Shown here: in pieces, positions 1 to 12,841 of the stretch
Position numbering within the stretch: the first letter of the stretch is position 1
Layout: every line of letters starts with the position of its first letter
Assembly: GCA_012511485.1 (NCBI GenBank)
Contig: JAAZFZ010000111.1
Location: 1 to 33,503 of the forward strand
Reading direction: 5' to 3'
DNA length: 33,503 bases
Source of the DNA: Clostridiales bacterium
Lineage (GTDB): Bacteria; Bacillota; Clostridia; Oscillospirales; Acutalibacteraceae
Translations under genes and position numbers: made by a program
Notes under the pieces: generated by a model
Seen by the model: only the letters and a program-made list of their open reading frames with translations
Databases searched by the model: none
What the model was told of the DNA's origin: nothing

Positions 1-3000
1 ATGGTGATAACCCATAATGCCTGCGTTGTAGACACCTCCACCGATTTCAACATCCGAACCGACATTGCAGCCTGTTATTATCACCTTTACATTGTTTCTT
101 CTGTTGTGCTGCCCGAAAATTCCGGAGGCAGAACTGTTATTTGCGCCATTCGAAACGATTTCAGTGTTGCCCAATACATTACAATTCTCAACAGTCATAT
201 CATTGGCTGCAGATGCTGTTCTGGCTAAAATACCTGCCGCAACTGCCCCTTCAATCCTGGAATCGTACAAATTACAGTTGCGGATTGTGCCCAAAAAGGC
301 ACCTGCAAAACCGCCCGTTATGCCGCCCTGTGTATTAGATGTTGCATTCACATTATTAACAGTAGTATTGCTTATTGAGCAGTTTTTTATAATTGAGGAG
401 GAGGTAACTGTAGCACTGCTCACGAAGCCGCCGGCAAAACCGGTCTGAGCTGTGATGCTGCTATTAGATTCCCCTGTTTTATCAAGGCTGACACCGTTTA
501 TTGTCAGAGTACCGACAGCTGTCGTAAGTGTTTGGGTTAAGCTATATAATGCACCAGCCATGCCTACAAGACCACCAACATATTCAGAACCGTTTACGCT
601 TAAATCATTGATGACCACATCCGGCTCAACAGGGTCCTGATTAGAGGCGGCACCGATTTGAAGTGTGCCGCCAGTGCTCACGAAGCTGCCGACTAACCCG
701 CCGACAAATCTTGAGGTTGGGGCAGAAACTGTTGCACCGTTTATTGTTACACCGCTGATTATGCAATGTGAATTATCAACGCCTATAATACCGGCAAATA
801 TGCCTGCGTTTGTGGTCGTAGCAGTAAGGGTTGCATTTGTGATGCTGATATCTGTAAATGAACAATCGCCTTCCATGTAGCCGACAAATATTGAAGAATA
901 GAGCCCGCTACCTGTTGAGGTGATATTGACAAAGTCAAGGTTTGAAAACGAGCAGCCGTTTCCACTCTGGAAAAACGCCACATTTTCATATGACAGAGGG
1001 TTGCCATAAGCATCATTTTCAGGGACGATATTCAGGTTGCTTATTGTGTATTTGCCCCCGCCGGGCTTTTCATCACCGAAGAAGGAGCCTTGAAATGAAG
1101 CGCGTTCGCTAATAGTTTGATAGGTGCCCATGGCTGTGAATTCATAGCCCTCCATGTCAATATCGCCACGGATAACATAATCCTCCTCGTCAAGAGTTGA
1201 ATCCGCAGCTAACTCCGGATAATTCTCATTGAGGAAAATGAGGTCGTCCCTTGTGGAAATGATATATGCATTCAACTCGAGATCCTTTGAAAGGCCGTTT
1301 AGTATATTTATTCTCGCCTTGAGCCCTGTTTGATTGTGAGTAATTGTGACTGTAGTGTTGACAACATCTCCAAGAGCTGAAAAATTAAACCTCAGAACAC
1401 TGTTGTTTGGCCCTTGAAATACGGTGGAAACATTGGACAGCATTGTGTTATCGTAGTCAATTGTCAGGTCTGAGAGCTGAACATTTTCAAAGTATTCAAT
1501 GCCCTGCGGCATATTAAGAGTAACATAGCTCGAACCGCCCGGTGCAACCGAGCCTGCACTTTCGTTGAAAGCCCACTTGACAAAACCTGTTGTTAACGGA
1601 CTGGTAGGCAACAAGGGCTGGACAGAGGTATCATCACTCTTAAAGCTCCAGTAAACATTCGAAATAACAGCTCCTGAAGCAACTGAGCCGAAAATTAAAT
1701 ATTTGAATAGTAAATCGTTGACTAAGCCCGAAGTGAAGCAGTTTGTAATGCGCGCATTGCTGCCCACCGAGCCTATAAAGCCGCCAATGGCGTTTGGTGT
1801 GCCGGGTATAGCACTAAAGCTCTCGCCTTTGAGCATATCGGATTGAGAGCCGCAATCTTCAATAATGCAGACACCACTTGCCCTTCCGGCAAAGCCGCCT
1901 ACATTTGAGCAGGACTTTCGCTCTATTATTACATCTATATCTGTCATGCAATCAGTCAGATAGCAGTTGCCTTCAATTTCATTGAGAAATGAACCTACTT
2001 CCGTTGCGGAAGTCGTCACCTTCCCGTTTGCAGTAGCATAGAGATTCACGTCGGAGAATGTGGCACTGAATGCCTTTCCGAAAATAGCTGATGATATGTT
2101 ACCGTTGAGAGTGATGTCAAGGTTACAAATATAGCCATATCTTAGGTTAGAGGCACTTGTCTTCCATGCCTCCAAGTCACTCGTATTAGAGTCCCTTTTT
2201 CCGTAAACACCTGAAAAGAGAGTTGATATCACAGTCAGTTCATGTCCGTCACCGTTAAGCGTTCCGCTAAAAGCATAGATAATCCAGCCAGAGGGCACAT
2301 TAATGTCTGCTCCCAGTTTAAAATGAGAGTATCTGGCATGTCTTATCAGGTTAAGCTCATTTGAATTTGAAATAATAATCGGGTTTTCATATGTAAGACC
2401 GGCACCCACCTCGGCGGTTAAAGTCTGCAAAACAGTGACCGTAAGCTGTTGTGAAATGACGGTTTCCTGAGCACCGATATCAGTTGGGAATTCGATATTT
2501 ACATTATAATTCACCTGATTCCATGCACCCGGATATGTTCCGGCGTCAATTTCAAATCCGCTTTGAGTTTGAGTTAAACTCATTCCCGTATCGCTGCTTA
2601 CAAGGGAGTAGCCTGCTATGGTGTCAAAGTCAATGCTTGTATTGCCCCATGTCGGGACAACATCTGTTGTTGACACAGGCACATCAGTGTCTTCAACTGC
2701 CACATTGAGTACGCTGACAGCTCTAGTCATACTATTAGTCAGCAACTGGGAATCGCTATAGGCACAGGGATTGCTCCTGCCGCTTATCTCCGCCGACCAG
2801 TAGCAGTTGGTGAGCACTCCGGATGAACCGTTTCTACCTATAACTGCACCGATATCTCTGGGCAGTGAAGGGAGCGAAACGAGCGCATAACAATTCTCAA
2901 CCACAGTGCCTGAAGAAGCCTGGCCGATTATACCGCCCGTTTGAAGATATGTATAGAATGAACCTATATTTTCATTGCCGACCTTACCCGTGGCAATACA

Positions 3001-4419
3001 TTTTGAAATTGGGCTTGTGGATGAGTTTTTGCCCACAATCCCGCCGTATATATTGAGCAAATTATCTGGCTTATAGTAATACATACCGATATCCAGCGCA
3101 CTGCAGTTTACAACTGAGCCTTCGTTTTCAGCAACAATGCCGCCAAAAACCTTCATGCCATACATATTGTAATGGGAGGCTGTCACGCTCTGGGCATTTG
3201 AGATGCGCCCCTGCACCGTGCAGTAGGACACTGTGCCGGCATTATAACCGGAAATGCCACCAACAACGCCACCCTTAGTGAAGTTATTAGTCACAGGAGT
3301 GCCTGTGCCACACATATCTACGCTGCACTTCGTAATAGTGTAGCCCGAATGGTTGTAGCCGGCTATGGCACCCGAATATGTAGAGGACGACTGGTCGTTA
3401 GTCGGGCTCGAAGGTGTTGAAGTGATTTTTATGCCCGAAATTGAAACATCGCTTATTGTGCCTTTGTTTTGCCCCGTTACACAACCTATATATTTTCTGG
3501 TACCTGTAATACTTATTGTGATATTGCTGGCTGTCACCGGGGTATTTGTACCTCCGATTGTGCCGAGGTTTGAGCCGCAAATAATGCCATATCCGGTCGG
3601 TAGCATATAACCTGAACCTATTTCAACGGATTCCGTAGTAATAGTGTTGTTGCCCGTTACCGTCAAGGAGAGGTTATTAAATTCACAGTTTGAGATTGTG
3701 CCGGCATTTTGAACAGCCAAAACTGCGCTGACAGCATTCTGCATATATGAGGTGGTGAGATTGCAGTTGATAAAACTTACATTATCAATTACCGTGTTCG
3801 AGCTCAGATAACCGAAAATGGCAGTGGTACTTCTGCCCTGGCTGGTTACATCCAAACCGCTGATTGTATAGCCGTCGCCGTCAAGTGAAAAGAATACATT
3901 TGACGGGTAACTGACAGCGTCGGCGGGATTCATTGAAATCAGTGAAGTGAAGCCGTAATAGTCCTTAAAATTGTAATCAGGGTTTAGATTGCCGCTGAAG
4001 GTAATCGGAGACAGGTCGATATCTGCAGTCAATTTAAAATACTTATCGGCTGAAGATGTATTATTGATTATAGACTGCATACCGAGAAAATCATCTAAAG
4101 TGTTAATTTGATACGGATTTTGCTGTGTACCCGTTCCCCCATTATAGTCAATAGTCAGGGATTGAACGGAATGTTTGACACGGCCGCCGCCGGTTATGAC
4201 ATTGACACCGTTACGGTCCAACTCTCCGCCCTCGGTTGTTACTTGAGCGCTTGTAGTCTTTTCGGTTTCTGATGTTGTTTTTTTCTCTTTAACTGCGGAG
4301 GTAGCTGTTGAATTCAAATCCTCCGCAGATACAATTATGGAGCTGATTCCGGTTGAAGACAGCAAAACAGATGCCGTTAACAGCATTACCATTAACCTTT
4401 TGACTATCTTTTTCTTCAT
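1..4419 (-). CDS. Giant secreted cell-surface protein with GLUG-type (parallel beta-helix) repeats; 5' end in window, 3' end runs off the left edge (>=1473 codons)
   Basis: Hand translation of the minus strand from the ATG at 4419 (GGAGG 7 nt upstream) stays open to position 1 (4419 = 3 x 1473). It is not in the ORF track, apparently because it has no stop inside the window. No listed minus-strand ORF shares its frame. N-terminus MKKKIVKRLMVMLLTASVLLSSTGISSIIVSA|ED is a classic type I signal peptide. The body is full of GLUG-like units (VGGLVGSF, YVGGLVGMAG, VGGFAGRASGVCIIEDC, IGGFIGSVGSNARITNC, GGIIGQASSGTVVENCY). There are three module starts of the type NPYxI...L..I...F.L..DID (near 4119, 2391, 1270). 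Confidence 0.8.
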   Translation of the reverse strand, partial: MKKKIVKRLMVMLLTASVLLSSTGISSIIVSAEDLNSTATSAVKEKKTTSETEKTTSAQVTTEGGELDRNGVNVITGGGRVKHSVQSLTIDYNGGTGTQQNPYQINTLDDFLGMQSIINNTSSADKYFKLTADIDLSPITFSGNLNPDYNFKDYYGFTSLISMNPADAVSYPSNVFFSLDGDGYTISGLDVTSQGRSTTAIFGYLSSNTVIDNVSFINCNLTTSYMQNAVSAVLAVQNAGTISNCEFNNLSLTVTGNNTITTESVEIGSGYMLPTGYGIICGSNLGTIGGTNTPVTASNITISITGTRKYIGCVTGQNKGTISDVSISGIKITSTPSSPTNDQSSSTYSGAIAGYNHSGYTITKCSVDMCGTGTPVTNNFTKGGVVGGISGYNAGTVSYCTVQGRISNAQSVTASHYNMYGMKVFGGIVAENEGSVVNCSALDIGMYYYKPDNLLNIYGGIVGKNSSTSPISKCIATGKVGNENIGSFYTYLQTGGIIGQASSGTVVENCYALVSLPSLPRDIGAVIGRNGSSGVLTNCYWSAEISGRSNPCAYSDSQLLTNSMTRAVSVLNVAVEDTDVPVSTTDVVPTWGNTSIDFDTIAGYSLVSSDTGMSLTQTQSGFEIDAGTYPGAWNQVNYNVNIEFPTDIGAQETVISQQLTVTVLQTLTAEVGAGLTYENPIIISNSNELNLIRHARYSHFKLGADINVPSGWIIYAFSGTLNGDGHELTVISTLFSGVYGKRDSNTSDLEAWKTSASNLRYGYICNLDITLNGNISSAIFGKAFSATFSDVNLYATANGKVTTSATEVGSFLNEIEGNCYLTDCMTDIDVIIERKSCSNVGGFAGRASGVCIIEDCGSQSDMLKGESFSAIPGTPNAIGGFIGSVGSNARITNCFTSGLVNDLLFKYLIFGSVASGAVISNVYWSFKSDDTSVQPLLPTSPLTTGFVKWAFNESAGSVAPGGSSYVTLNMPQGIEYFENVQLSDLTIDYDNTMLSNVSTVFQGPNNSVLRFNFSALGDVVNTTVTITHNQTGLKARINILNGLSKDLELNAYIISTRDDLIFLNENYPELAADSTLDEEDYVIRGDIDMEGYEFTAMGTYQTISERASFQGSFFGDEKPGGGKYTISNLNIVPENDAYGNPLSYENVAFFQSGNGCSFSNLDFVNITSTGSGLYSSIFVGYMEGDCSFTDISITNATLTATTTNAGIFAGIIGVDNSHCIISGVTINGATVSAPTSRFVGGLVGSFVSTGGTLQIGAASNQDPVEPDVVINDLSVNGSEYVGGLVGMAGALYSLTQTLTTAVGTLTINGVSLDKTGESNSSITAQTGFAGGFVSSATVTSSSIIKNCSISNTTVNNVNATSNTQGGITGGFAGAFLGTIRNCNLYDSRIEGAVAAGILARTASAANDMTVENCNVLGNTEIVSNGANNSSASGIFGQHNRRNNVKVIITGCNVGSDVEIGGGVYNAGIMGYHH

Positions 4420-4503: not shown

Positions 4504-6279
4504 TTACCCCACATCATTTGAACTCTTTTTATCCTGCTCTGCTTTTATTTTAGCTATGCGCTCTCTTTCGCGCTGACGCTGCTTTGCCTTTGCAGCTCTT
4601 TCTTTTTCAAGCTGTGCGGCCTTTAGTCTATCAAGGCGTTCCTTTTCACGCTGTTTTGCCTTTGCAGCCCTCTCTTTTTCAAGCTGTGCGGCCTTTTCTC
4701 TGGCAAGGCGTTCCTTTTCACGCTGTTTTGCCTTTGCAGCCCTTTCTTTTTCAAGCTGTGCGGCCTTCTGTCTTTCTATGCGTTCCTTTTCACGCTGCTT
4801 TGCCTTTGCAGCTTTTTCTTCCTCGAGAGCCCTGAGCTTCTCTGCACGCTCTTTTTCCCTTTGAAGCCTTGCTTTCTCTTTGGCTTTTGCAAGCTTCTCT
4901 GCTTCTATTGCCTTCTGCTTCGCTATGCGTGCTCTCTCTCTCTCTTTTGCCGCCTTTTCTTTTGCAAGAGCTTTTTCTTTCTCTTGCTTTGCCTTGAGAG
5001 CGGCCTTCTGTTTTGCTATGCGCTCTTTTTCACGAGCTTTTTCACGGGCAATTCTTGCAGCCTCACGCTCTTTTTTGCGTTTCTCAATTTCTTTCTTACG
5101 CTGAATTTCAGCCTTAATACGAGCTTCAATCGCTGCCTTGCGCGCTTTTTCAGATTCGAGTGCTCTGTTAATTGCAGCCTTAATTCTCTCCTCGCCTGCA
5201 ATTTTCTTCTTGCTTGCTCGCTTAACTTCATCCAGGAAAATTCGCCTGATTTCGACCTCTTCAAGATCATAATCAATCACAAACTCTTCGGCAAGGCGTT
5301 TGAGAATTTTGGGCTTGATTTTGCGCTGCTTGACCTTGCCTTTTATTAACTCCGGATGCAGAGAATTATTTTTAAGCAACATATAATTGACCGCAACCTG
5401 CTTATAAAGCTCGTCACGGGTTTCGTCGGTTACCATTTCATTGCTCTCTTTTGAGACAATTTCATAGCCGACTTCATCATAGGCTGAAATGAACTGCCAA
5501 AGATTAAGGCAAGCCTTGAAGTTCGGATCCTTGCTGATAATATTTGTCCTCATAATGGGAGGGCGCACGGGAGTACATCCGTGTAGCTCATTAATAAATG
5601 AGGAACGCGCAAATTCATTAACAATGCCTTTAATTCTCTCAATTCTCTGAAATGCCGATGCCTGCTTTGTATCTTTAACACTTGAATCAATCTTTTCTTT
5701 TTCCTGTGAGGACTGTGTTGAAATCTCGAGCTTATATGAAATTTTTTCCCTTCCGTTTGCAATATCGCTTTCCATTTTCAGCGATGTCATATTCTCGTTA
5801 TCGGAAAGGCCGAAAAGAACATTATAGCGAGCATCAATGAACCGTTGAAGATTCATCATTAGTGTATAGATAAAACGATTTTCGTATATTTCATAGCTTT
5901 CTTCACGGAATACATTTAGAATCTGGCTGGGAGTAACTCTGTCATCATCGACCCTTGCTATCAAATTTGTATGCTGCGCGAGGTGACGCACCGACTCTGC
6001 GGTTATCTTTCTAGCGCGCTCGATAGGAACTATTTCTTCCTCCTGAACGATAAACTTGCGGGGATTCCTTATTATCGTATCTAAGGGAATAATACATTCT
6101 TCAATTGCATCTACCCAACGCAAATCAATGTTCTTTTCAAAATACTTGCTGAACAATGATAATCTATTATTCCCGCGTTCGGTAACATCAAGGATGTGCT
6201 CATAAAAGTCATTACCTTCCATGAGGGACGATATGCTCTCTTTATATTCGTTATATAAATCCTTGTATGATTTTTCCAT
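4504..6279 (-). CDS. McrC/DUF2357-like N-terminal domain protein without a recognisable nuclease domain, carrying a ~230-aa C-terminal E/R/K/A-rich helix
   Basis: 591-aa ORF, GGAAGGGA RBS, starts 34 nt after the McrB-like gene. N-terminal ~330 aa contain RKFIVQEEEIVPIERARKITAESVRHLAQH ... ESYEIYENRFIYTLMMNL, which resembles the McrC N-domain/DUF2357 pattern as I remember it. Residues ~355-585 are almost only E/K/R/A/Q. No PD-(D/E)xK-like motif found by eye. Confidence 0.85.
   Translation of the reverse strand: MEKSYKDLYNEYKESISSLMEGNDFYEHILDVTERGNNRLSLFSKYFEKNIDLRWVDAIEECIIPLDTIIRNPRKFIVQEEEIVPIERARKITAESVRHLAQHTNLIARVDDDRVTPSQILNVFREESYEIYENRFIYTLMMNLQRFIDARYNVLFGLSDNENMTSLKMESDIANGREKISYKLEISTQSSQEKEKIDSSVKDTKQASAFQRIERIKGIVNEFARSSFINELHGCTPVRPPIMRTNIISKDPNFKACLNLWQFISAYDEVGYEIVSKESNEMVTDETRDELYKQVAVNYMLLKNNSLHPELIKGKVKQRKIKPKILKRLAEEFVIDYDLEEVEIRRIFLDEVKRASKKKIAGEERIKAAINRALESEKARKAAIEARIKAEIQRKKEIEKRKKEREAARIAREKAREKERIAKQKAALKAKQEKEKALAKEKAAKERERARIAKQKAIEAEKLAKAKEKARLQREKERAEKLRALEEEKAAKAKQREKERIERQKAAQLEKERAAKAKQREKERLAREKAAQLEKERAAKAKQREKERLDRLKAAQLEKERAAKAKQRQRERERIAKIKAEQDKKSSNDVG
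4570..4830. repeat. About 3.5 tandem copies of a 72-bp (24-codon) unit inside the E/R/K tail coding region
   Basis: The string tttgcctttgcagc recurs at 4583, 4655, 4727 and 4799 (exact 72-nt period). The encoded unit is AAQLEKERAAKAKQREKERLxRxK. Confidence 0.85.
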
Positions 6280-6313
6280 GTATATAGTCCCTTCCTTCGA
6301 TTGTAGGCATTAT

Positions 6314-7864
6314 TTAGATAAGCTTCTGGAGTCTTTCAAGATAATCCTTGGACTCTTTCATATTCGATTTGCCAAAGTTCTTATTAAGATATGTAATCAA
6401 ACCGCCGATTTCATCACGGATGAATGAAAGGTTGAGTGACTCAAATTTACGCAGAATCTTGTGGCAAAGCAAAAAGTCAAGTCCGTCAATTTCAGTGCCG
6501 CCGCAGCCTACATATGAGGGTATGAAATCGGTTAGCTGCTTTACAATACGGTTACCGAACGCCAAACGGAAATGTTCGATAACATAGTCATCAAGCTCGG
6601 CAAGCTTTCTTAGGCTTTCTTCGGAAACCTTGTATTTGACCTTTGACTCTCTGAACATCTCTTCAAGATGCTTATAGTTGAGTGATAAATTTTCAGTCCA
6701 CGGGGCGTCGAAATACTTACCCTTTGAGTTAATGTCTATCGGAATGGCACGGTCATAAACCTTATCGGTAACTGCGAATGTCGAGTCATCGTTATTGATT
6801 GTGCCGACATACCACATATTTTCGGTAAGTCGGAGCTTGCCGTCAAACGAATGCTTAGGGCCAGTAGGCCAAACAGAGGGTACAAGGCTGTCAACCCACG
6901 CATCACGACTTGGCATTTCAAGAATTGAAAGCATTTCAGCAAAGTAATACTCAACACGGGCGATGTTCATTTCATCAAGGATTGTAACGAAAATATCCTC
7001 TTTATATGTAGCTTCATACATCTTTTTAAGAACTTCCGTTTCATTGAAGCGTTTTGTAAATTCATTGAAGTAACCGAAAAGCTCGGTGCGGTCACGCCAG
7101 GAAGGCTGGACTGATGCAATAGTGGCGTCGTTTTTGAGGAATTTACCAAATGCATAAGGAAGCGAAGTTTTACCGGTACCGGAAATACCCTGAAGGATAA
7201 TGAGCCTTGTTGTGGAAAAGGCGGCCAGGAACAGGCGTATGATTTTATGGTCGTAATACAGCCCCATCCTTGAGCTCGCATAGTTGCGGAACATATCAAC
7301 GATTTCAGGCAATGTAATATCGTTGTTGTAATCGGGCGGCTCATAGTTCTCAAGGGCAAGGTCAACCTGGGTCAGCTTATAGAAACGGCTGAAATCCTCA
7401 TTGGTCGCATCCGTATCTGCGCCCTCGCCTTCCTCTTCGCCCTCCTGAGTCTCATCGATGAACGGGCTTTCACCCGGCCGAAGGCCGAGCTGTGAAACCT
7501 TCATAGCAAGGATTTTCTCCTTCTCGGTTGTGAGCTTTATTACCTCTCTGTTAAGAGTAGCAACTTCGTTAAGAAGTTCTTCCTGGTCTACAACTGTTTT
7601 GTGGAACCTGACATACTTCTTGATAAGAAGAACAATAAGCCAGATTATGCCAGCCAGAACAGCTAAAACAATAATAATGGATAGAATTGCCAAAATCCAT
7701 GTTCCTGCTGAGAATTCGTCTTTCCATTGACTAAAGACATCAATATATTTCGGGATGTTAAAGATATTTTTGATTCCCACACCGATACCTTTAATTATTC
7801 CCCATATGCCCTCAACAAAAAACTGGCTCAAAAAATCTTCCAAGAACTTAATTAGAGCTCCCAT
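6314..7864 (-). CDS. Membrane-anchored McrB-family AAA+ GTPase (AAA_5-like)
   Basis: 516 aa. Strongly hydrophobic helix TWILAILSIIIVLAVLAGIIWLIVLLI followed by KKYVRFHK, then a coiled-coil-like segment and the acidic linker EEGEEEGEGADTD. Walker A GISGTGKTS (7163-7189) and Walker B/McrB signature ILDEMNIARVEYYFAEMLSILE. VGTINNDDSTFAVTDKVYDRA corresponds to the McrB GTMNTADRS...RRF block (NxxD). Confidence 0.85.
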   Translation of the reverse strand: MGALIKFLEDFLSQFFVEGIWGIIKGIGVGIKNIFNIPKYIDVFSQWKDEFSAGTWILAILSIIIVLAVLAGIIWLIVLLIKKYVRFHKTVVDQEELLNEVATLNREVIKLTTEKEKILAMKVSQLGLRPGESPFIDETQEGEEEGEGADTDATNEDFSRFYKLTQVDLALENYEPPDYNNDITLPEIVDMFRNYASSRMGLYYDHKIIRLFLAAFSTTRLIILQGISGTGKTSLPYAFGKFLKNDATIASVQPSWRDRTELFGYFNEFTKRFNETEVLKKMYEATYKEDIFVTILDEMNIARVEYYFAEMLSILEMPSRDAWVDSLVPSVWPTGPKHSFDGKLRLTENMWYVGTINNDDSTFAVTDKVYDRAIPIDINSKGKYFDAPWTENLSLNYKHLEEMFRESKVKYKVSEESLRKLAELDDYVIEHFRLAFGNRIVKQLTDFIPSYVGCGGTEIDGLDFLLCHKILRKFESLNLSFIRDEIGGLITYLNKNFGKSNMKESKDYLERLQKLI

Positions 7865-7940: not shown

Positions 7941-8693
7941 TTATCCGCCGTTATCTTCAAACGATGTACCTGTCTTCTCCTGCCCGGTTTCTTCTTGCGC
8001 CGGGACTGTCTGCGGTTGTGAATCCGCATTCTGCAGCTTTTGCTGCTGAGCAAGATATTCGGCAATCACCCTATCCTTTTCTTCCTCTGTTTTGGATGCA
8101 ATCTCCTCGAGCGCTCTTTCTTTTTTGCTTTCAATTAATGTAATTATGAATTTATATAGCTGAAAGGCAAACAGTAGTGCAAGCGGAACAACAATGCAGA
8201 CCAAAAAGCCTTTCGGAGAGCTTAGAAAATCCAAAACCATGCCGAGGTTGCTGATTTTTTTGCCTGTCCATAGGCCGACAATATAGTCGGGTGACAGCTC
8301 GTCAACATCTGACTCTTTATTATGGTCGCCTCGAGTAACATAGGTAATTACTGTTTGATTATAAATTTCAAATCGTGTTTCCTTTTTTTCGATAATTCTG
8401 TGAGTGTTGAGAAATCTGCTTTTATTGTCCGGCGAGTATTTCCAGAAGGTGACAACATCACCCTTTTTTAGGGTTTCGGGGTTGCAGTCCATATCAATAA
8501 TGAGGTCGCCCTTCTCAAATACGCCGGACATTGAATCGGACTGAACAGAAAGAAATGAATACCCGAACAGCTTGGGCACTCCGCTATCCCTCGAGGAAAA
8601 CGCCATAACAGTAACGGCAACCGAAAAAATAATTATTATGAAAATTGCAATGTCTCCAAGTACACTTAACGCCTTTCTTGCTTTGTCATTCAT
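7941..8693 (-). CDS. sipW: Signal peptidase I, SipW/ER-archaeal type, with extra C-terminal TM helix and acidic tail
   Basis: N-terminal TM, SVQSDSMSGVFEKGD (catalytic Ser box), GDVV, and LNTHRIIEK (His box typical of SipW-type Ser/His peptidases). Lies next to a protein with a SipW-cognate signal peptide. Confidence 0.85.
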   Translation of the reverse strand: MNDKARKALSVLGDIAIFIIIIFSVAVTVMAFSSRDSGVPKLFGYSFLSVQSDSMSGVFEKGDLIIDMDCNPETLKKGDVVTFWKYSPDNKSRFLNTHRIIEKKETRFEIYNQTVITYVTRGDHNKESDVDELSPDYIVGLWTGKKISNLGMVLDFLSSPKGFLVCIVVPLALLFAFQLYKFIITLIESKKERALEEIASKTEEEKDRVIAEYLAQQQKLQNADSQPQTVPAQEETGQEKTGTSFEDNGG

Positions 8694-8985
8694 AGGATTT
8701 ACACCTCATTATTGTTTCAATATCAAAGGTCATTAAAACTTTGAAAAAGGCTCTCAAAGCATTAATCGCCTTTGATGCCTGCCACGGGCGGCGGCGCCGC
8801 CGCCCGTGAATTTTATTTGTGCAGTAGGAGCCATTCATAAACGGCCCCAAAGTTAGCTAACAACGAGGGCGATTTATGAACCGCCCCTACCAAAGAGAAT
8901 GGGGAGATTGGGGAGTTGTATGGGGCGGGGCGACCGCCCCATACTAATTTCAATAATTTGCAAAAAATCTTTACTTTGATTTAAC
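8694..8985 (-). promoter_or_regulatory. 292-nt GC-rich, highly structured intra-operon spacer between the TasA-like gene and sipW (attenuator/processing/stabiliser candidate)
   Basis: Perfect 26-nt palindrome CACGGGCGGCGGCGCCGCCGCCCGTG (8783-8808). 10-bp hairpin TATGGGGCGG-ggcga-CCGCCCCATA (8919-8943). A third GGGGCGG copy on the minus strand (8881-8889) could pair alternatively with CCGCCCC. TTCATAAA/TTTATGAA arms (8834-8841 / 8873-8880). ATCAAAGG/CCTTTGAT arms nearer sipW. Confidence 0.5.
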
Positions 8986-9777
8986 TTAGGGGGAAGGTTC
9001 CTCGTCAGGAATAAAGTTGAGGAGGAGATTGATACCGACTGTGCCGCCGCTATATGAACCTTGACATTGGGCATCCTGACCTTCAATCCAAACTCTGACA
9101 GTAATGCTCTGAGTCCCTGCATCAGTAAAAACAAGTTCGTATGAGTCGATAAGTCCTGATTGGATTGTGGTGGGCGTAACATGGGCCGCAGTCTGGGCAA
9201 TACCGTTCAAAGCCTCTGTTGAAGTTACGTCAGAGTTTATTGCATTATAAGCACCGTTGCTATCCGCCGCATAGATTTTTGTTCCTTCTGAATCAGTGAT
9301 AGAAGCATAGGCAATAGTAGCAGTGTTAAGACCGCTAATTGAGCTTTCGCTTCCAGTGCCCTGAGTGAATTGAACCGTACCGGGTTTGCCGACACGCAGG
9401 TTCAAATCAAACTCAAGGTAATCAGCATTAGCTGTTGCAGTACCCATTGTTATTACATCATCGGCAAGTGAACCCTTTCTGAAAGACAGCGTGTCATCTC
9501 CTAGTCTTAAAGCGTCAACAGGTGCGAAATTCAGTGCAGAGAGATCAAGTTCCTTAACAGTTTCAAAGTGTTCCTCTGTGATTGTTGAAAACCAATCCAC
9601 ATTGTTTAGTGAGAGCTCAAGACCGCTCTGAGCTGCTACTCTTACATCAAGATTTTCGACTCTTGCTGAATTGCTCATTGAAAACCATGCATAGGTTGCT
9701 GATGTCAAAACAATTGCAGAAACAACAAGCATTGCAACTGCTGACAAAAGAGAACGCTTTTTCATTGACTTTTTCAT
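8986..9777 (-). CDS. Secreted TasA/camelysin-like protein with SipW-cognate class signal peptide
   Basis: 263 aa. MKKSMKKRSLLSAVAMLVVSAIVLTSATYAWFSMS matches the SipW-dependent signal peptide pattern (T-x-A-x-F-S). GGAGGAAAAC RBS. Adjacent to sipW. Confidence 0.75.
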   Translation of the reverse strand: MKKSMKKRSLLSAVAMLVVSAIVLTSATYAWFSMSNSARVENLDVRVAAQSGLELSLNNVDWFSTITEEHFETVKELDLSALNFAPVDALRLGDDTLSFRKGSLADDVITMGTATANADYLEFDLNLRVGKPGTVQFTQGTGSESSISGLNTATIAYASITDSEGTKIYAADSNGAYNAINSDVTSTEALNGIAQTAAHVTPTTIQSGLIDSYELVFTDAGTQSITVRVWIEGQDAQCQGSYSGGTVGINLLLNFIPDEEPSP

Positions 9778-9901: not shown

Positions 9902-10729
9902 CTACGCCTGCACGGCGCTTGCGGCTTCTTCCTCCAAAACATTGAAGTTCATGGAAAGCTTGCATTCGCCTCCCAGGATTTCGTCCACACATTCTGGATC
10001 CCATCCTTCAAGCCAGATGACAACAGTGTACTTATCCACATCACCGGCTTCAAAGTTTTTCCTTATGTCTTCGCAAACCTTTAAATCCGACTTAAAAAGC
10101 TGGTCTATTGCAAACATTGCATATTGATTATTTATGTCGCGCGGGCGTTTGCCGTAAACGGTAGGCTTGCCGTTCCTAAACAACATGACCCTGATTGCAT
10201 CGTCAACACCCTTTGTGTAGGAATCAATGTCAATGCTCATATAGTAGTCAATAGTATCCTTGCCGCTGTTTTTAATATAAAAGGTATAGGCAATATTGTT
10301 TGTGCCGTTGTGGCTTCCGTTGACATTATCAAGCTCCTGAATTGACTTATATGTAGGGTCACTGGAAATATAATTGCCTGAAGTTTTCGGGTCATTTGTG
10401 AGCCATTCTTTGGTAATGTTCGTCATATTCTCAACTGCAGAACCCTGCAGCATAATTGTCGGGTCGCCAAAATCAGGGCTTTCGCAAATTGAAATTCCCT
10501 TCTCCTTAAAGGCATCAGGGTCCAGGTTAACTGTAAAACGACCTGCCTTATTAACAAAACTGACGCAGGCAAAGCTGATTGACATTATCAGCAAAAGCAA
10601 CAAAAGAACAACGAGCAGCAGCTCTATCATCTGATTTCTTTTGCTAACCTGCTTAGCGGTTACACGAACCTCTCTGCGTGCCCCTCCGGCAACAGCCGCC
10701 TTAGGCTCACTCGCTTGCTTTCGGCTCAA
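9902..10729 (-). CDS. Membrane-anchored TasA-like paralogue (possible TapA-like anchor/assembly factor); TTG start
   Basis: 275 aa. Charged N-terminus, poly-Leu TM (IELLLVVLLLLLLIMSISFACVSF), AYTFYIKNSGKDTIDY (TasA-like F.F.N.G strand). Its C-terminal block VVIWLEGWDPEC...LSMNFNVLEEE parallels VRVWIEGQDAQC...LLLNFIPDEE of the 263-aa neighbour. Confidence 0.7.
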   Translation of the reverse strand: MSRKQASEPKAAVAGGARREVRVTAKQVSKRNQMIELLLVVLLLLLLIMSISFACVSFVNKAGRFTVNLDPDAFKEKGISICESPDFGDPTIMLQGSAVENMTNITKEWLTNDPKTSGNYISSDPTYKSIQELDNVNGSHNGTNNIAYTFYIKNSGKDTIDYYMSIDIDSYTKGVDDAIRVMLFRNGKPTVYGKRPRDINNQYAMFAIDQLFKSDLKVCEDIRKNFEAGDVDKYTVVIWLEGWDPECVDEILGGECKLSMNFNVLEEEAASAVQA

Positions 10730-10749: not shown

Positions 10750-11502
10750 TTAATTAATCTTAATCTGTCTCTCGGCAATAGGCTTACCGTAATAAGGACC
10801 CTTCATCTGGTCAACGCCCATTGCCCGAAGCAGGGCAGCTTTTTCTTCATTGTCAACACCGTCAACCTTAACCTTTGTTTCGATTTTTTTCGCAAAATCA
10901 ATTATGCCCTGAACAACATTTTGCGCCCGCTCGTTTTCAAGTATTCCGTCAAGCAGGCTTGCATGAACCCCAATATAATCCACCTTATAATGACTCAAAT
11001 GAGTAAGAGAAGTGAACTCAACCCCAAAATCGTCAATTGAAACTAAAAAGCCGAACTCCCTGGCGTCATTAATGTTTTTAATAACCTGCTCCTTTGTGTT
11101 ATCAAGGATGCTCTCATTTATGTTGAAACAAAACTTATCAGGGTCAATCTGCTTTTTCTCGATGATTTTTTTTGCCTGATTAAGAAAGTAATTTTTTGCA
11201 AGATATTTGACTGAAATCGGAACTATAATACGGTTAATAAATACATCACGATTTGCGCATCTCGTTATTGCGTCACAGCACTCTTCAATTGCCCATTTAT
11301 CTATTTCACAAATCTGATTTGATTTTTGTGCAATGGGCATAAACTTTTCGGGCAGGAGTACGCCGAGTTGCCTGTCGTTTATCTGCATACTGATTTCATA
11401 ATCAATTGCCATATTCAGATGAACATCAAACACCGGCTGATAAAAAATCTCAATCGCTCTTAAACGAGAACCACGGCTGACTGCCGTTTTGTTTTCTTGC
11501 AT
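10750..11502 (-). CDS. Stand-alone EAL-domain protein, apparently catalytically degenerate
   Basis: 250 aa. IFYQPVF, YEISMQ (in place of EALxR), SIDDFGVEFTSL (DDFG box), VDGVDNEE (in place of EGVE), KGPYYGKP (in place of QGxxFxxP). GAGGAG RBS. Confidence 0.75.
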   Translation of the reverse strand: MQENKTAVSRGSRLRAIEIFYQPVFDVHLNMAIDYEISMQINDRQLGVLLPEKFMPIAQKSNQICEIDKWAIEECCDAITRCANRDVFINRIIVPISVKYLAKNYFLNQAKKIIEKKQIDPDKFCFNINESILDNTKEQVIKNINDAREFGFLVSIDDFGVEFTSLTHLSHYKVDYIGVHASLLDGILENERAQNVVQGIIDFAKKIETKVKVDGVDNEEKAALLRAMGVDQMKGPYYGKPIAERQIKIN

Positions 11503-11851: not shown

Positions 11852-12841
11852 CTATTCTTTTTTCGGGAAAAGTATTGAGCATTTCTCTCTGATATTCTGC
11901 ATTACTTCGCTCACATCGAGAGCAAGGCCGCGCGCATAATTATACTTATGACGGTATGCTTCTCTCTGCGTGATGTAGAGATAAAAGGCCTTCGCTTCAT
12001 AGCCCATCAGCTTTGTTTTTGGGGTATACCCGCAGATAGTTGCCCGACTCCCGTCATGGCGGCAAATCTCAATATTTTGAAGCTGTGAAATTGACCCGAC
12101 AGTAATTGTCCCCTCGTCACCTAGTATCTGAGAGCCGCTGTAGCTCTGCGCAAGTTTTGAGTATGTAAGGGTAACCTGCTTGTCGCTGAAATCGAAAATA
12201 GTTGAGCCATAACCGTCCGCTCCGGTTTTTATGAAGCCTGCCGAGGATGATATTTTTTGCGGGATTCCCAAAAAATCAAGTGCAGGATAGACGCAGTAAA
12301 TGCCCAAGTCCATTAAGCAGCCTCCCGCAAATTTCGGGTTAAAAACATTGGGCAACTCCCCTCGTTTATACTGAGCATATCTGGATGAAAACTGCGAATA
12401 ATCAAAGTGGGCGCTGGTTATCTTCCCTATTCTTTTTATGGAGTTTATCAAAAGCTCTCTGGCGGGAGAATAGAGGTACATTATTGCCTCCATATAAACC
12501 AGCCCTTTCTCTTCCGCTATACACTCTAGCTCTCTGAGCTCTTCGGGCGTAACTGTTATCGGCTTTTCGCAGATGACATGTTTGCCATTTTCAAGCATCA
12601 GCTTTGACTGCTCATAGTGAAGGGAATTGGGGCTTGCAACATAAACGGCATCAATATCTGAGGATGCAAAGCTTTCAATATTGGTATAAACAACGGGAGA
12701 ACCAAATTTTTGTGCAAAATCCTCACCCCTGCGCTCAGTGCGTGAATACACTGCCGCAAGCTTGAGTCCGTCAACATCCTGCGCTCCGATGATAAATTCC
12801 TCGGTGATTTTTCCGGTGCCTATCACGCCGTATCTTATCAT
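11852..12841 (-). CDS. Gfo/Idh/MocA-family NAD(P)-dependent oxidoreductase
   Basis: MIRYGVIGTGKITEEF Rossmann N-terminus, EKP motif (HVICEKPI), 329 aa. Its ATG overlaps the upstream stop (TAATG). Confidence 0.85.
   Translation of the reverse strand: MIRYGVIGTGKITEEFIIGAQDVDGLKLAAVYSRTERRGEDFAQKFGSPVVYTNIESFASSDIDAVYVASPNSLHYEQSKLMLENGKHVICEKPITVTPEELRELECIAEEKGLVYMEAIMYLYSPARELLINSIKRIGKITSAHFDYSQFSSRYAQYKRGELPNVFNPKFAGGCLMDLGIYCVYPALDFLGIPQKISSSAGFIKTGADGYGSTIFDFSDKQVTLTYSKLAQSYSGSQILGDEGTITVGSISQLQNIEICRHDGSRATICGYTPKTKLMGYEAKAFYLYITQREAYRHKYNYARGLALDVSEVMQNIREKCSILFPKKE

Follow-up and report, generated by a model that had tools for sequence, protein, structure and literature searches.

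A McrB-type GTPase with a predicted membrane anchor and its McrC-like partner are encoded beside a SipW-type signal peptidase in Clostridia: a candidate part of a surface-fibre apparatus

Introduction

The McrBC systems were the subject of a census by Bell et al. (eLife 2024, PMC11090510), according to which the NxD variant defines a major branch of McrB. One paragraph of that work names CoCoPALM, a large clade of NxD GTPases fused to an FtsB-like module of transmembrane helix and coiled coil; in this class coiled coils are usual on both the McrB and the McrC homologues, and an association with the signal peptidase family was reported. The analysis of CoCoPALM was deferred to a later paper, and we found no such follow-up in the literature. 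Here we describe a locus of this kind in a stretch of 33,503 nucleotides (nt) from a Clostridiales bacterium of the Acutalibacteraceae (GCA_012511485.1, contig JAAZFZ010000111.1, positions 1-33,503 of the forward strand), which is called the window in the following. Two of its genes encode a McrB-type GTPase of 516 amino acids (aa), P1, and a McrC-like protein of 591 aa, P2. They stand in a row of seven genes running head to tail on the minus strand, in the order EAL, 275-aa protein, 263-aa protein, sipW, P1, P2 and giant protein.

By their sequences P1 and P2 are a member of CoCoPALM, and their architecture is not new. A preliminary description of the window had implied novelty, a point that has to be given up because the class already has a name (PMC11090510); the two open reading frames (ORFs) were found exactly where that description had placed them, on the minus strand and 34 nt apart. 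We lean towards assigning the pair to a fibre or adhesin apparatus as a dedicated component that acts by a cycle driven by guanosine triphosphate (GTP), rather than regarding it as a restriction enzyme.

The McrB-type GTPase P1

The protein and its regions are located in the window as follows.

6314..7864, minus strand: P1, 516-aa membrane-anchored AAA+ GTPase of the McrB family, NxD clade (assigned by ORF and homology)
7619..7702, minus strand: predicted transmembrane helix of P1, about residues 55-82 (hydropathy peak of 3.44 on the Kyte-Doolittle scale; the basic KKYVRFHK comes next)
7487..7597, minus strand: juxtamembrane coiled-coil-like helix of P1, about residues 90-126 (heptad-like L/V/I spacing)
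7385..7486, minus strand: acidic linker of P1, about residues 127-160 (charge composition)
6635..7267, minus strand: AAA+ GTPase core of P1, about residues 200-410 (alignments to Escherichia coli McrB)
6317..6634, minus strand: C-terminal region of P1, about residues 411-516, presumed AAA+ lid (conservation)

The preliminary description had recognised a McrB-type AAA+ core in this protein, and the searches confirm it. Compared with the PDB by phmmer, P1 significantly matches E. coli McrB chains (E 1.8e-5 to 3.6e-5; best 6hz4, over residues 205-409) and nothing beyond McrB. The NCBIfam McrB model is matched with E 3.8e-6, and the profile of the P1 family aligns with E. coli McrB over 185 columns (hhalign, probability 97%, E 1.2e-10); the Pfam profile AAA_5 reaches E 0.07 only. 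A MoxR-type or other AAA+ clade, which the preliminary description had named as the competing assignment, was rejected, because such matches are absent from the Pfam results and from the PDB results, where McrB is the only family with significant matches.

The motifs of the core are the Walker A GISGTGKTS, the Walker B LDEMN, the signature loop NNDDST and R372. Among 15 diverse relatives, which reach down to 32% identity, the residues G226, G229, G231, K232 and T233 of Walker A (G226-T233), D297 of Walker B (D297/E298), N300, N357, D359, S361, T362 and R372 are invariant, and E298 is nearly so. Because Walker A, Walker B, N357, D359, S361, T362 and R372 are all invariant or nearly invariant, P1 looks catalytically competent. 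Two adjacent arginines are present in E. coli McrB, and P1 has a counterpart to R348 only. The C-terminal region is the best-conserved part of the protein, with 71% of its positions at least 90% conserved in 66 species, and contains an invariant FGNR (G437, R439).

Across the relatives the signature motif reads N-x-D-[D/E/Q]-S-T (NNDD, NSDQ, NNDE, NRDE, NQDE), a pattern by which P1 is placed in the NxD-variant clade of McrB. The NxxD element that the preliminary description had seen in GTINNDDST fits the motif of the window itself, as the NNDD of P1 is compatible with either NxD or NxxD and aligns without a gap to the NTAD of E. coli, but it does not fit the pattern of the clade.

Where a DNA-reading domain could be expected, residues 1-170 of P1 consist of an N-tail, the transmembrane helix, the coiled-coil-like stretch and the acidic linker, just as the preliminary description had it, and Pfam and other domain scans of these residues gave no match to a DNA reader. 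The helix is the sole segment of P1 that scores above 1.6 on the Kyte-Doolittle scale, and by the positive-inside rule we infer that the GTPase domain is cytoplasmic. In the coiled-coil-like stretch E100, L104 and L111 are invariant. Residues 127-170 carry a net charge of -10, and the equivalent linker, although its length varies, is net negative in 66 out of 66 P1 homologues compared (-5 to -12).

An exhaustive phmmer search with P1 yielded 758 cluster representatives with E below 1e-30 and 5776 with E below 1e-10. The closest GTPase domains follow four kinds of N-terminal module. One is the transmembrane helix with coiled coil, as in P1; the three others are a secreted domain with a transmembrane helix, polytopic membrane domains, and soluble coiled coils of 300-500 aa. 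The other membrane modules were seen on relatives whose GTPase domains are 35-56% identical (P0365, P0371, P0398, P0404, P0419, P0435, P0439, P0446, P0449, P0457 and P0480), either as a secreted domain with one transmembrane helix or as polytopic domains of 4-8 helices.

The McrC-like partner P2

P2 is encoded directly downstream of P1 and can be divided into three parts.

4504..6279, minus strand: P2, 591-aa McrC-N-domain (DUF2357) protein without a detectable nuclease (assigned by ORF and homology; homologues are named DUF2357 proteins)
5728..6270, minus strand: DUF2357 or McrC finger-like domain of P2, residues 4-184 (Pfam PF09823)
5200..5727, minus strand: conserved middle region of P2, residues 185-360 (mostly helical, no nuclease signature)
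4507..5199, minus strand: K/E/R/A-rich tail of P2, residues 361-591 (231 aa), presumed long helix (composition)
4576..4820, minus strand: tandem repeat of 72 nt (24 aa) in the P2 tail, 3.4 copies (Tandem Repeats Finder)

The similarity to the McrC N-domain and DUF2357 noted in the preliminary description was recovered when residues 1-370 were searched: they match DUF2357 (PF09823) with E 1.6e-10 and 41.1 bits, against a gathering score of 23.3, and so do 21 out of 29 P2 homologues. Full-length P2 finds nothing in Pfam, NCBIfam or PADLOC, since the low-complexity tail masks the domain, and this masking explains why some database homologues have no domain annotation; residues 1-370 alone still match no PADLOC model. 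The AlphaFold2 model of residues 1-353 (pLDDT, the predicted local distance difference test, 76; predicted template modelling score, pTM, 0.54; weak for residues 310-353) contains helices and the long beta strands 37-51, 162-175 and 178-191, and is compatible with a McrC finger, that is, a helical bundle with a long beta stalk. The hhalign comparison of P2 with E. coli McrC, which belongs to a different Pfam family (PF10117), was negative.

The middle region is modelled as helices with a single hairpin (272-281). Its invariant residues include R212, R215, P240, P241, T245, N246, K250 and W261, none of the invariant residues being acidic, and in the alignment of the homologues there is no invariant acidic residue after position 200. 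Neither full-length P2 nor its N-terminal 370 aa has a PF10117, PF04411 or Cas4-like match in Pfam. An alpha/beta nuclease core is absent from the AlphaFold2 model and Foldseek retrieved no nuclease with it, residues 310-353 being of low confidence. Thus a cryptic PD-(D/E)xK fold between about residues 230 and 350, raised in the preliminary description as an observation that would speak against it, was detected by none of Pfam, AlphaFold2 and Foldseek (again with 310-353 at low confidence), and its statement that an E/K/R/A tail stands in place of the nuclease is supported. More generally, the DNA recognition and cleavage modules of McrBC appear to be lost in this pair, the modules of the interface between motor and activator are kept and a predicted membrane tether is present, all as that description had proposed.

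The main residues of the tail itself are A and K (22% each), E (19%) and R (15%); about 12% of its residues are hydrophobic, and its net charge is +37. Among the P2 homologues the tail may be as short as 24 aa or as long as 599 aa. E, K, R, A and Q together account for a median fraction of 0.85, and the net charge is +20 to +51 in 25 of 29 homologues, some others having neutral or acidic tails (-13 to +5). The 72-nt repeat (90% matches, score 392), present in 3.4 copies, suggests that the tail changes its length by gain and loss of repeats. By its composition the tail would be no less compatible with a single charged helix than with a coiled coil.

Such a basic tail could bind DNA or RNA, which a P1 ring would then move, so that the pair would be a nucleic-acid machine at the membrane, serving for example the release of extracellular DNA into the matrix or its uptake. 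The tail charge of most homologues is consistent with this, canonical McrB is believed to translocate DNA, and the CoCoNuT relatives are predicted to target RNA (PMC11090510). However, no nucleic-acid-binding domain was detected, the tails of some homologues are neutral or acidic and their length varies widely, and McrC plugs the pore in the McrBC structures that have been solved (PMC7680126). We therefore regard a nucleic-acid machine as highly improbable and keep to a role of the pair in a fibre or adhesin apparatus.

Conservation of the gene neighbourhood

Species-representative genomes were scanned and yielded 71 loci with P1 homologues, which belong to Acutalibacteraceae, Ruminococcaceae, Christensenella and further metagenome-assembled genomes of Bacillota. 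When metagenomes, among them samples of gut, rumen and sludge, were scanned with the family alignment, 80 loci of 54-99% identity were added; these were scored with hidden Markov models built from the genome loci. The preliminary description had proposed a survey of homologous neighbourhoods; in these loci P1 and P2 are adjacent in 134 of the 135 with enough sequence, an obligatory adjacency. Every genome locus with room (64 out of 64) has P2 directly downstream of P1, at a median gap of 48 nt. In 70 of 71 metagenome loci with room P2 lies downstream, at a distance of up to 400 nt in 64 of them and further off in 6. The 6 include L140 (9375-11956), where about 2.6 kb separate P1 and P2, and L146 (223-1809), where P1 is split into two ORFs; in L130 a P1 homologue has no P2 downstream.

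A sipW gene lies within 1.7 kb of P1 in 68 of the 71 genome loci, the three exceptions being cut contigs, and it is found in all 31 metagenome loci with both flanks, 30 of which also encode beta-rich secreted proteins. Because the Christensenella-type loci have another order (P1, P2, sipW, secreted protein), the association with sipW survives rearrangement. Three distant loci, in which P2 is about 40% identical, show a similar row of small proteins without Pfam match, P1/P2 homologues and giant proteins, and in two of them (L074, L075) a Peptidase_S26 gene follows downstream. As P2, sipW and the beta-rich proteins are near-constant and the EAL gene occurs in only 7 of the 31 metagenome loci, the core comprises four genes: P1, P2, sipW and at least one gene for a beta-rich secreted protein. 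In many Acutalibacteraceae loci (L001, L002, L014-L028 and others) another sipW and a further gene for a secreted protein lie between P1 and the first sipW; the window has one gene of either kind.

Conservation was expressed as median identity to the window proteins over the 71 genome loci. It amounts to 76% for P1, 64% for the P2 N-domain and 57% for the EAL protein, and falls to 39% for SipW, 39% for the 275-aa protein, 30% for the 263-aa protein and 28% for the giant protein. The motor genes are under strong purifying selection, and their products are far more conserved than the secreted ones, the pattern expected of a cytoplasmic machine with fast-evolving exposed proteins.

From position 11852 onwards the row is bounded by annotated housekeeping genes, including those for prolyl-tRNA synthetase, FGAM synthase (PurL), phosphoglycerate mutase, mannitol dehydrogenase, an ABC-F protein and sugar metabolism. 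A search of 2.9 million viral contigs returned no relative. These flanks and the lack of viral relatives led us to reject a mobile or prophage origin. In PADLOC no model is matched by P2 or the neighbouring genes, and domain scans found no nuclease domain in any gene of the row or the flanks.

These data also bear on an anti-phage role, in which the pair would watch over the membrane, or over the fibre or pilus as a likely receptor for phages, and would kill or arrest the cell via the membrane part of P1. The family descends from Type IV restriction, its nearest clade is CoCoNuT (PMC11090510), P1 is predicted from hydropathy to be inserted in the membrane, and the PADLOC candidate-defence model PDC-M26A matches P1 with E 3.6e-39, the sole strong PADLOC match. 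Nevertheless, searches of P1, P2 and their neighbours detected neither a nuclease nor another effector domain, P1 remains 54-89% identical across family-level divergence with stable synteny, the flanks are housekeeping genes, viral contigs lack the family, and P1 never occurs without sipW where the flanks are visible. Defence is thus a quite unlikely explanation in our judgement. Of the two functions offered in the preliminary description, abortive infection is the less supported, and the motor for surface fibres is the one favoured by synteny.

The genes around P1 and P2

The other genes of the row are the following.

10750..11502, minus strand: stand-alone EAL-domain protein at the head of the row (Pfam EAL, 1.4e-49)
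9902..10729, minus strand: 275-aa beta-rich protein, paralogue of the 263-aa protein (basic N-tail and one hydrophobic helix)
8986..9777, minus strand: 263-aa secreted all-beta protein, candidate fibre subunit (SipW-type signal end …TSATYA/WFS)
7941..8693, minus strand: SipW-type signal peptidase I with charged C-terminal tail (NCBIfam SipW, 7.4e-26)
1..4419, minus strand: giant secreted protein of more than 1473 aa, running off the window (Sec-type signal peptide in the translation)

The spacing is tight around the pair: sipW ends 76 nt upstream of the start of P1, P2 follows P1 after 34 nt and the giant gene begins 84 nt downstream of P2. Good ribosome-binding sites precede P1 (AGGTGG), P2 (GGAAGGGA) and the giant gene (GGAGG). 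The gap between the 263-aa gene and sipW is unusually long (292 nt). It contains a perfect GC-rich palindrome, CACGGGCGGCGGCGCCGCCGCCCGTG, at 8783-8808 and a second GC hairpin at about 8920-8941. Because on the gene strand no T-run follows either of them, they may represent an element for attenuation or RNA processing, placed between the gene of the subunit and those of the machinery.

The product of sipW scores 72 bits with TIGR02228 (cut-off 51.85) and continues past its last hydrophobic segment in a charged, net acidic extension of 60 aa (residues 190-250; net charge -6). The 275-aa protein has an N-tail (residues 1-34) of net charge +7 before a hydrophobic peak at residues 39-54, and is a candidate for a membrane-anchored or minor subunit. 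If cytoplasmic, as their positions suggest, the acidic extension of SipW or the basic N-tail of the 275-aa protein could touch the P1/P2 complex.

Near their C-termini the 263-aa and 275-aa proteins have a W-x-E-G-x-D-x-x-C motif in common. Invariant in the 263-aa protein are T28, A30, W31, F32, E232, G233 and C238; hence its signal peptide has an invariant T-x-A-W-F at the end, and the name of one homologue mentions a "SipW-like signal peptide". The AlphaFold2 model of the 263-aa protein is confident and all-beta (pLDDT 85, pTM 0.81). We consider both proteins candidate SipW substrates and possibly fibre subunits, and the term "TasA-like" is unjustified: an identity with TasA was rejected by sequence (Pfam, PDB profiles) and is unsupported by Foldseek, the SipW-type signal end being the only feature in common.

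Homologues of the giant protein are encoded downstream of P2 in 49 genome loci. In the window it shows a weak GLUG match (0.003), its C-terminus being outside the window. The type of giant protein differs by lineage: those of L074 (7407-12133) and L075 (14563-19211) match LRR_5 and that of L077 (1-3841) matches Flg_new. Next to P1/P2 it looks like an exchangeable cargo or adhesin.

Of the 71 genome loci 50 have the EAL gene, of the 31 more distant metagenome loci only 7, and by this distribution it is a lineage-specific regulatory add-on. In L075 an HD-EAL fusion takes the place of the stand-alone EAL protein.

The charged tails and the EAL gene could also be read as signs of regulation. A P1/P2 cycle would then be a switch or scaffold without mechanical work, which gates SipW or passes on a signal from the surface or envelope; this signal would control how fibres are produced, perhaps jointly with the EAL protein. 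The EAL gene indeed heads the row in the lineage of the window, the tail of SipW, presumably cytoplasmic, is charged (-6), the tail of P2 (+37) and the linker of P1 (-10) have complementary charges, and PcdA, a co-opted McrB relative, acts as a weak NTPase switch. On the other hand, every catalytic residue needed for stimulated hydrolysis is strictly retained, as is the activator P2, in contrast to PcdA, which has degenerated and lost its McrC partner, and the EAL gene is missing from most distant loci (present in 7 of 31). We consider a pure switch unlikely, and turn again to a GTP-driven part of the fibre or adhesin apparatus.

Proposed function

A role in surface fibres is favoured because of the synteny, the purifying selection, the housekeeping flanks, the lack of viral relatives and the lack of an effector domain. 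By analogy with McrBC, P1 would form a hexameric ring under the membrane, from which it would hang by its transmembrane helices, coiled coils and acidic linkers, six of each, with GTP as its presumed specific nucleotide. One P2 would put its DUF2357 finger into this ring as a plug and stimulate GTP hydrolysis at one site at a time, like McrC in McrB. Niu et al. (PMC7680126) describe the McrC finger and a rotation model, with the N-domains of McrB and the C-domain of McrC at the "top" of the complex. Since McrB N-termini and the McrC C-domain share one side there, the domain of P2 behind the finger and its long basic helix would leave the ring on the side facing the membrane. As a hypothesis from gene context, the GTP cycle might promote export, processing, anchoring or polymerisation of the beta-rich proteins processed by SipW and of the giant adhesin.

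Several points weigh against this proposal. Synteny speaks for a functional linkage, not for the direction or nature of a coupling, and CoCoPALM members are known from genes alone. Given the PDC-M26A match, the nearest relatives of P1 may be defence proteins. The FtsB homology reported for the N-terminal module was not reproduced for P1 (hhalign against E. coli FtsB, E 0.2), the family matches of this region being sub-threshold (FtsL_2 0.067, DivIC 0.11, FtsL_Actino 0.04). For P2, a Foldseek search of the AlphaFold2 model against the PDB did not return McrC and gave nothing below E 0.25, nor was McrC retrieved when the P2 family profile was compared with PDB sequences. The 263-aa and 275-aa proteins have no Pfam or PDB sequence match, profile searches included, and the best Foldseek matches of the 263-aa model are chaperone-usher pilins with E 0.014 or worse and low TM-scores. 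Finally, to our knowledge the SipW/TasA systems of Bacillus need no cytoplasmic nucleoside triphosphatase.

A more specific form of the proposal is tentative, and we rate it as possible though rather doubtful. A P1 ring fixed by six helices and a P2 shaft might together work as a cyclic, possibly rotary GTP machine that powers the assembly of fibres or adhesins or their extrusion through the Gram-positive wall. If so, the assembly of fibres would have a motor of a new class, and an intact McrBC pair would for the first time have a mechanical role that does not involve nucleic acids.

Should the link to fibres be functional, an intact GTPase of the restriction type and its activator would have been repurposed as envelope machinery in Clostridia abundant in gut and rumen, a second co-option of McrB after PcdA, here with the mechanism intact. 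It would also show how SipW-dependent fibres and giant adhesins could be assembled in bacteria that seem to be without other dedicated systems. With the survey the question comes down to four core genes, which encode the GTPase, its partner with DUF2357, SipW and a secreted protein rich in beta structure.

Comparison with known systems

With canonical McrBC (E. coli, Thermococcus gammatolerans; 6hz4, 6ut6) the pair shares a GTPase core with Walker A and B, an Asn/Asp loop and a trans arginine, and a partner encoded directly downstream that matches the McrC N-terminal domain by sequence. It differs in that P1 has a predicted transmembrane helix and coiled coil where McrB has a DNA reader, that its motif is NxD, and that the PD-(D/E)xK nuclease of McrC was not detected in P2. 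Furthermore, the canonical systems stand in a restriction context, whereas the context of P1/P2 is not one of restriction or defence.

The CoCoNuT proteins (CnuB/CnuC) also belong to the NxD clade, and their McrC homologues are often without active nuclease; relatives with about 40% identical GTPase domains carry N-terminal coiled coils of 300-500 aa. However, CoCoNuTs are soluble and always linked to nucleases such as HEPN, whereas P1 is predicted to be membrane-anchored and has no nuclease gene nearby. PcdA of Staphylococcus aureus (10.1101/2023.09.03.556088) is likewise a McrB-family protein moved from restriction to a process of the cell envelope. It has kept its EVE reader domains, its Walker motifs are degenerate and its McrC partner is lost, whereas P1 retains all motifs and the activator.

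On the side of the secreted proteins, the closest systems are SipW-TasA/TapA of Bacillus and SipW-BsaA of Clostridium perfringens, in which a SipW-type peptidase is likewise encoded beside secreted, fibre-forming substrates. These operons differ in having no McrB or McrC homologues, and no TasA similarity was detected in the secreted proteins of the window. For C. perfringens an additional machine was proposed to move oligomers past the wall (PMC11580942); the "McrB" mentioned in that paper is only part of an E. coli strain genotype.

The closest match is CoCoPALM, which combines a NxD GTPase bearing a transmembrane helix and a coiled coil with an adjacent McrC homologue that has a coiled-coil-like extension, and with a signal peptidase gene. 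Apart from the FtsB homology, which was not reproduced, the window pair differs from it in nothing essential. Beyond the account of Bell et al., the present loci show that the peptidase is of the SipW type, that it is accompanied by beta-rich proteins which share a W-x-E-G-x-D-x-x-C motif and have SipW-type signal ends, that giant adhesins of varying type belong to the row and that conservation is far higher in the motor than in the neighbouring proteins.

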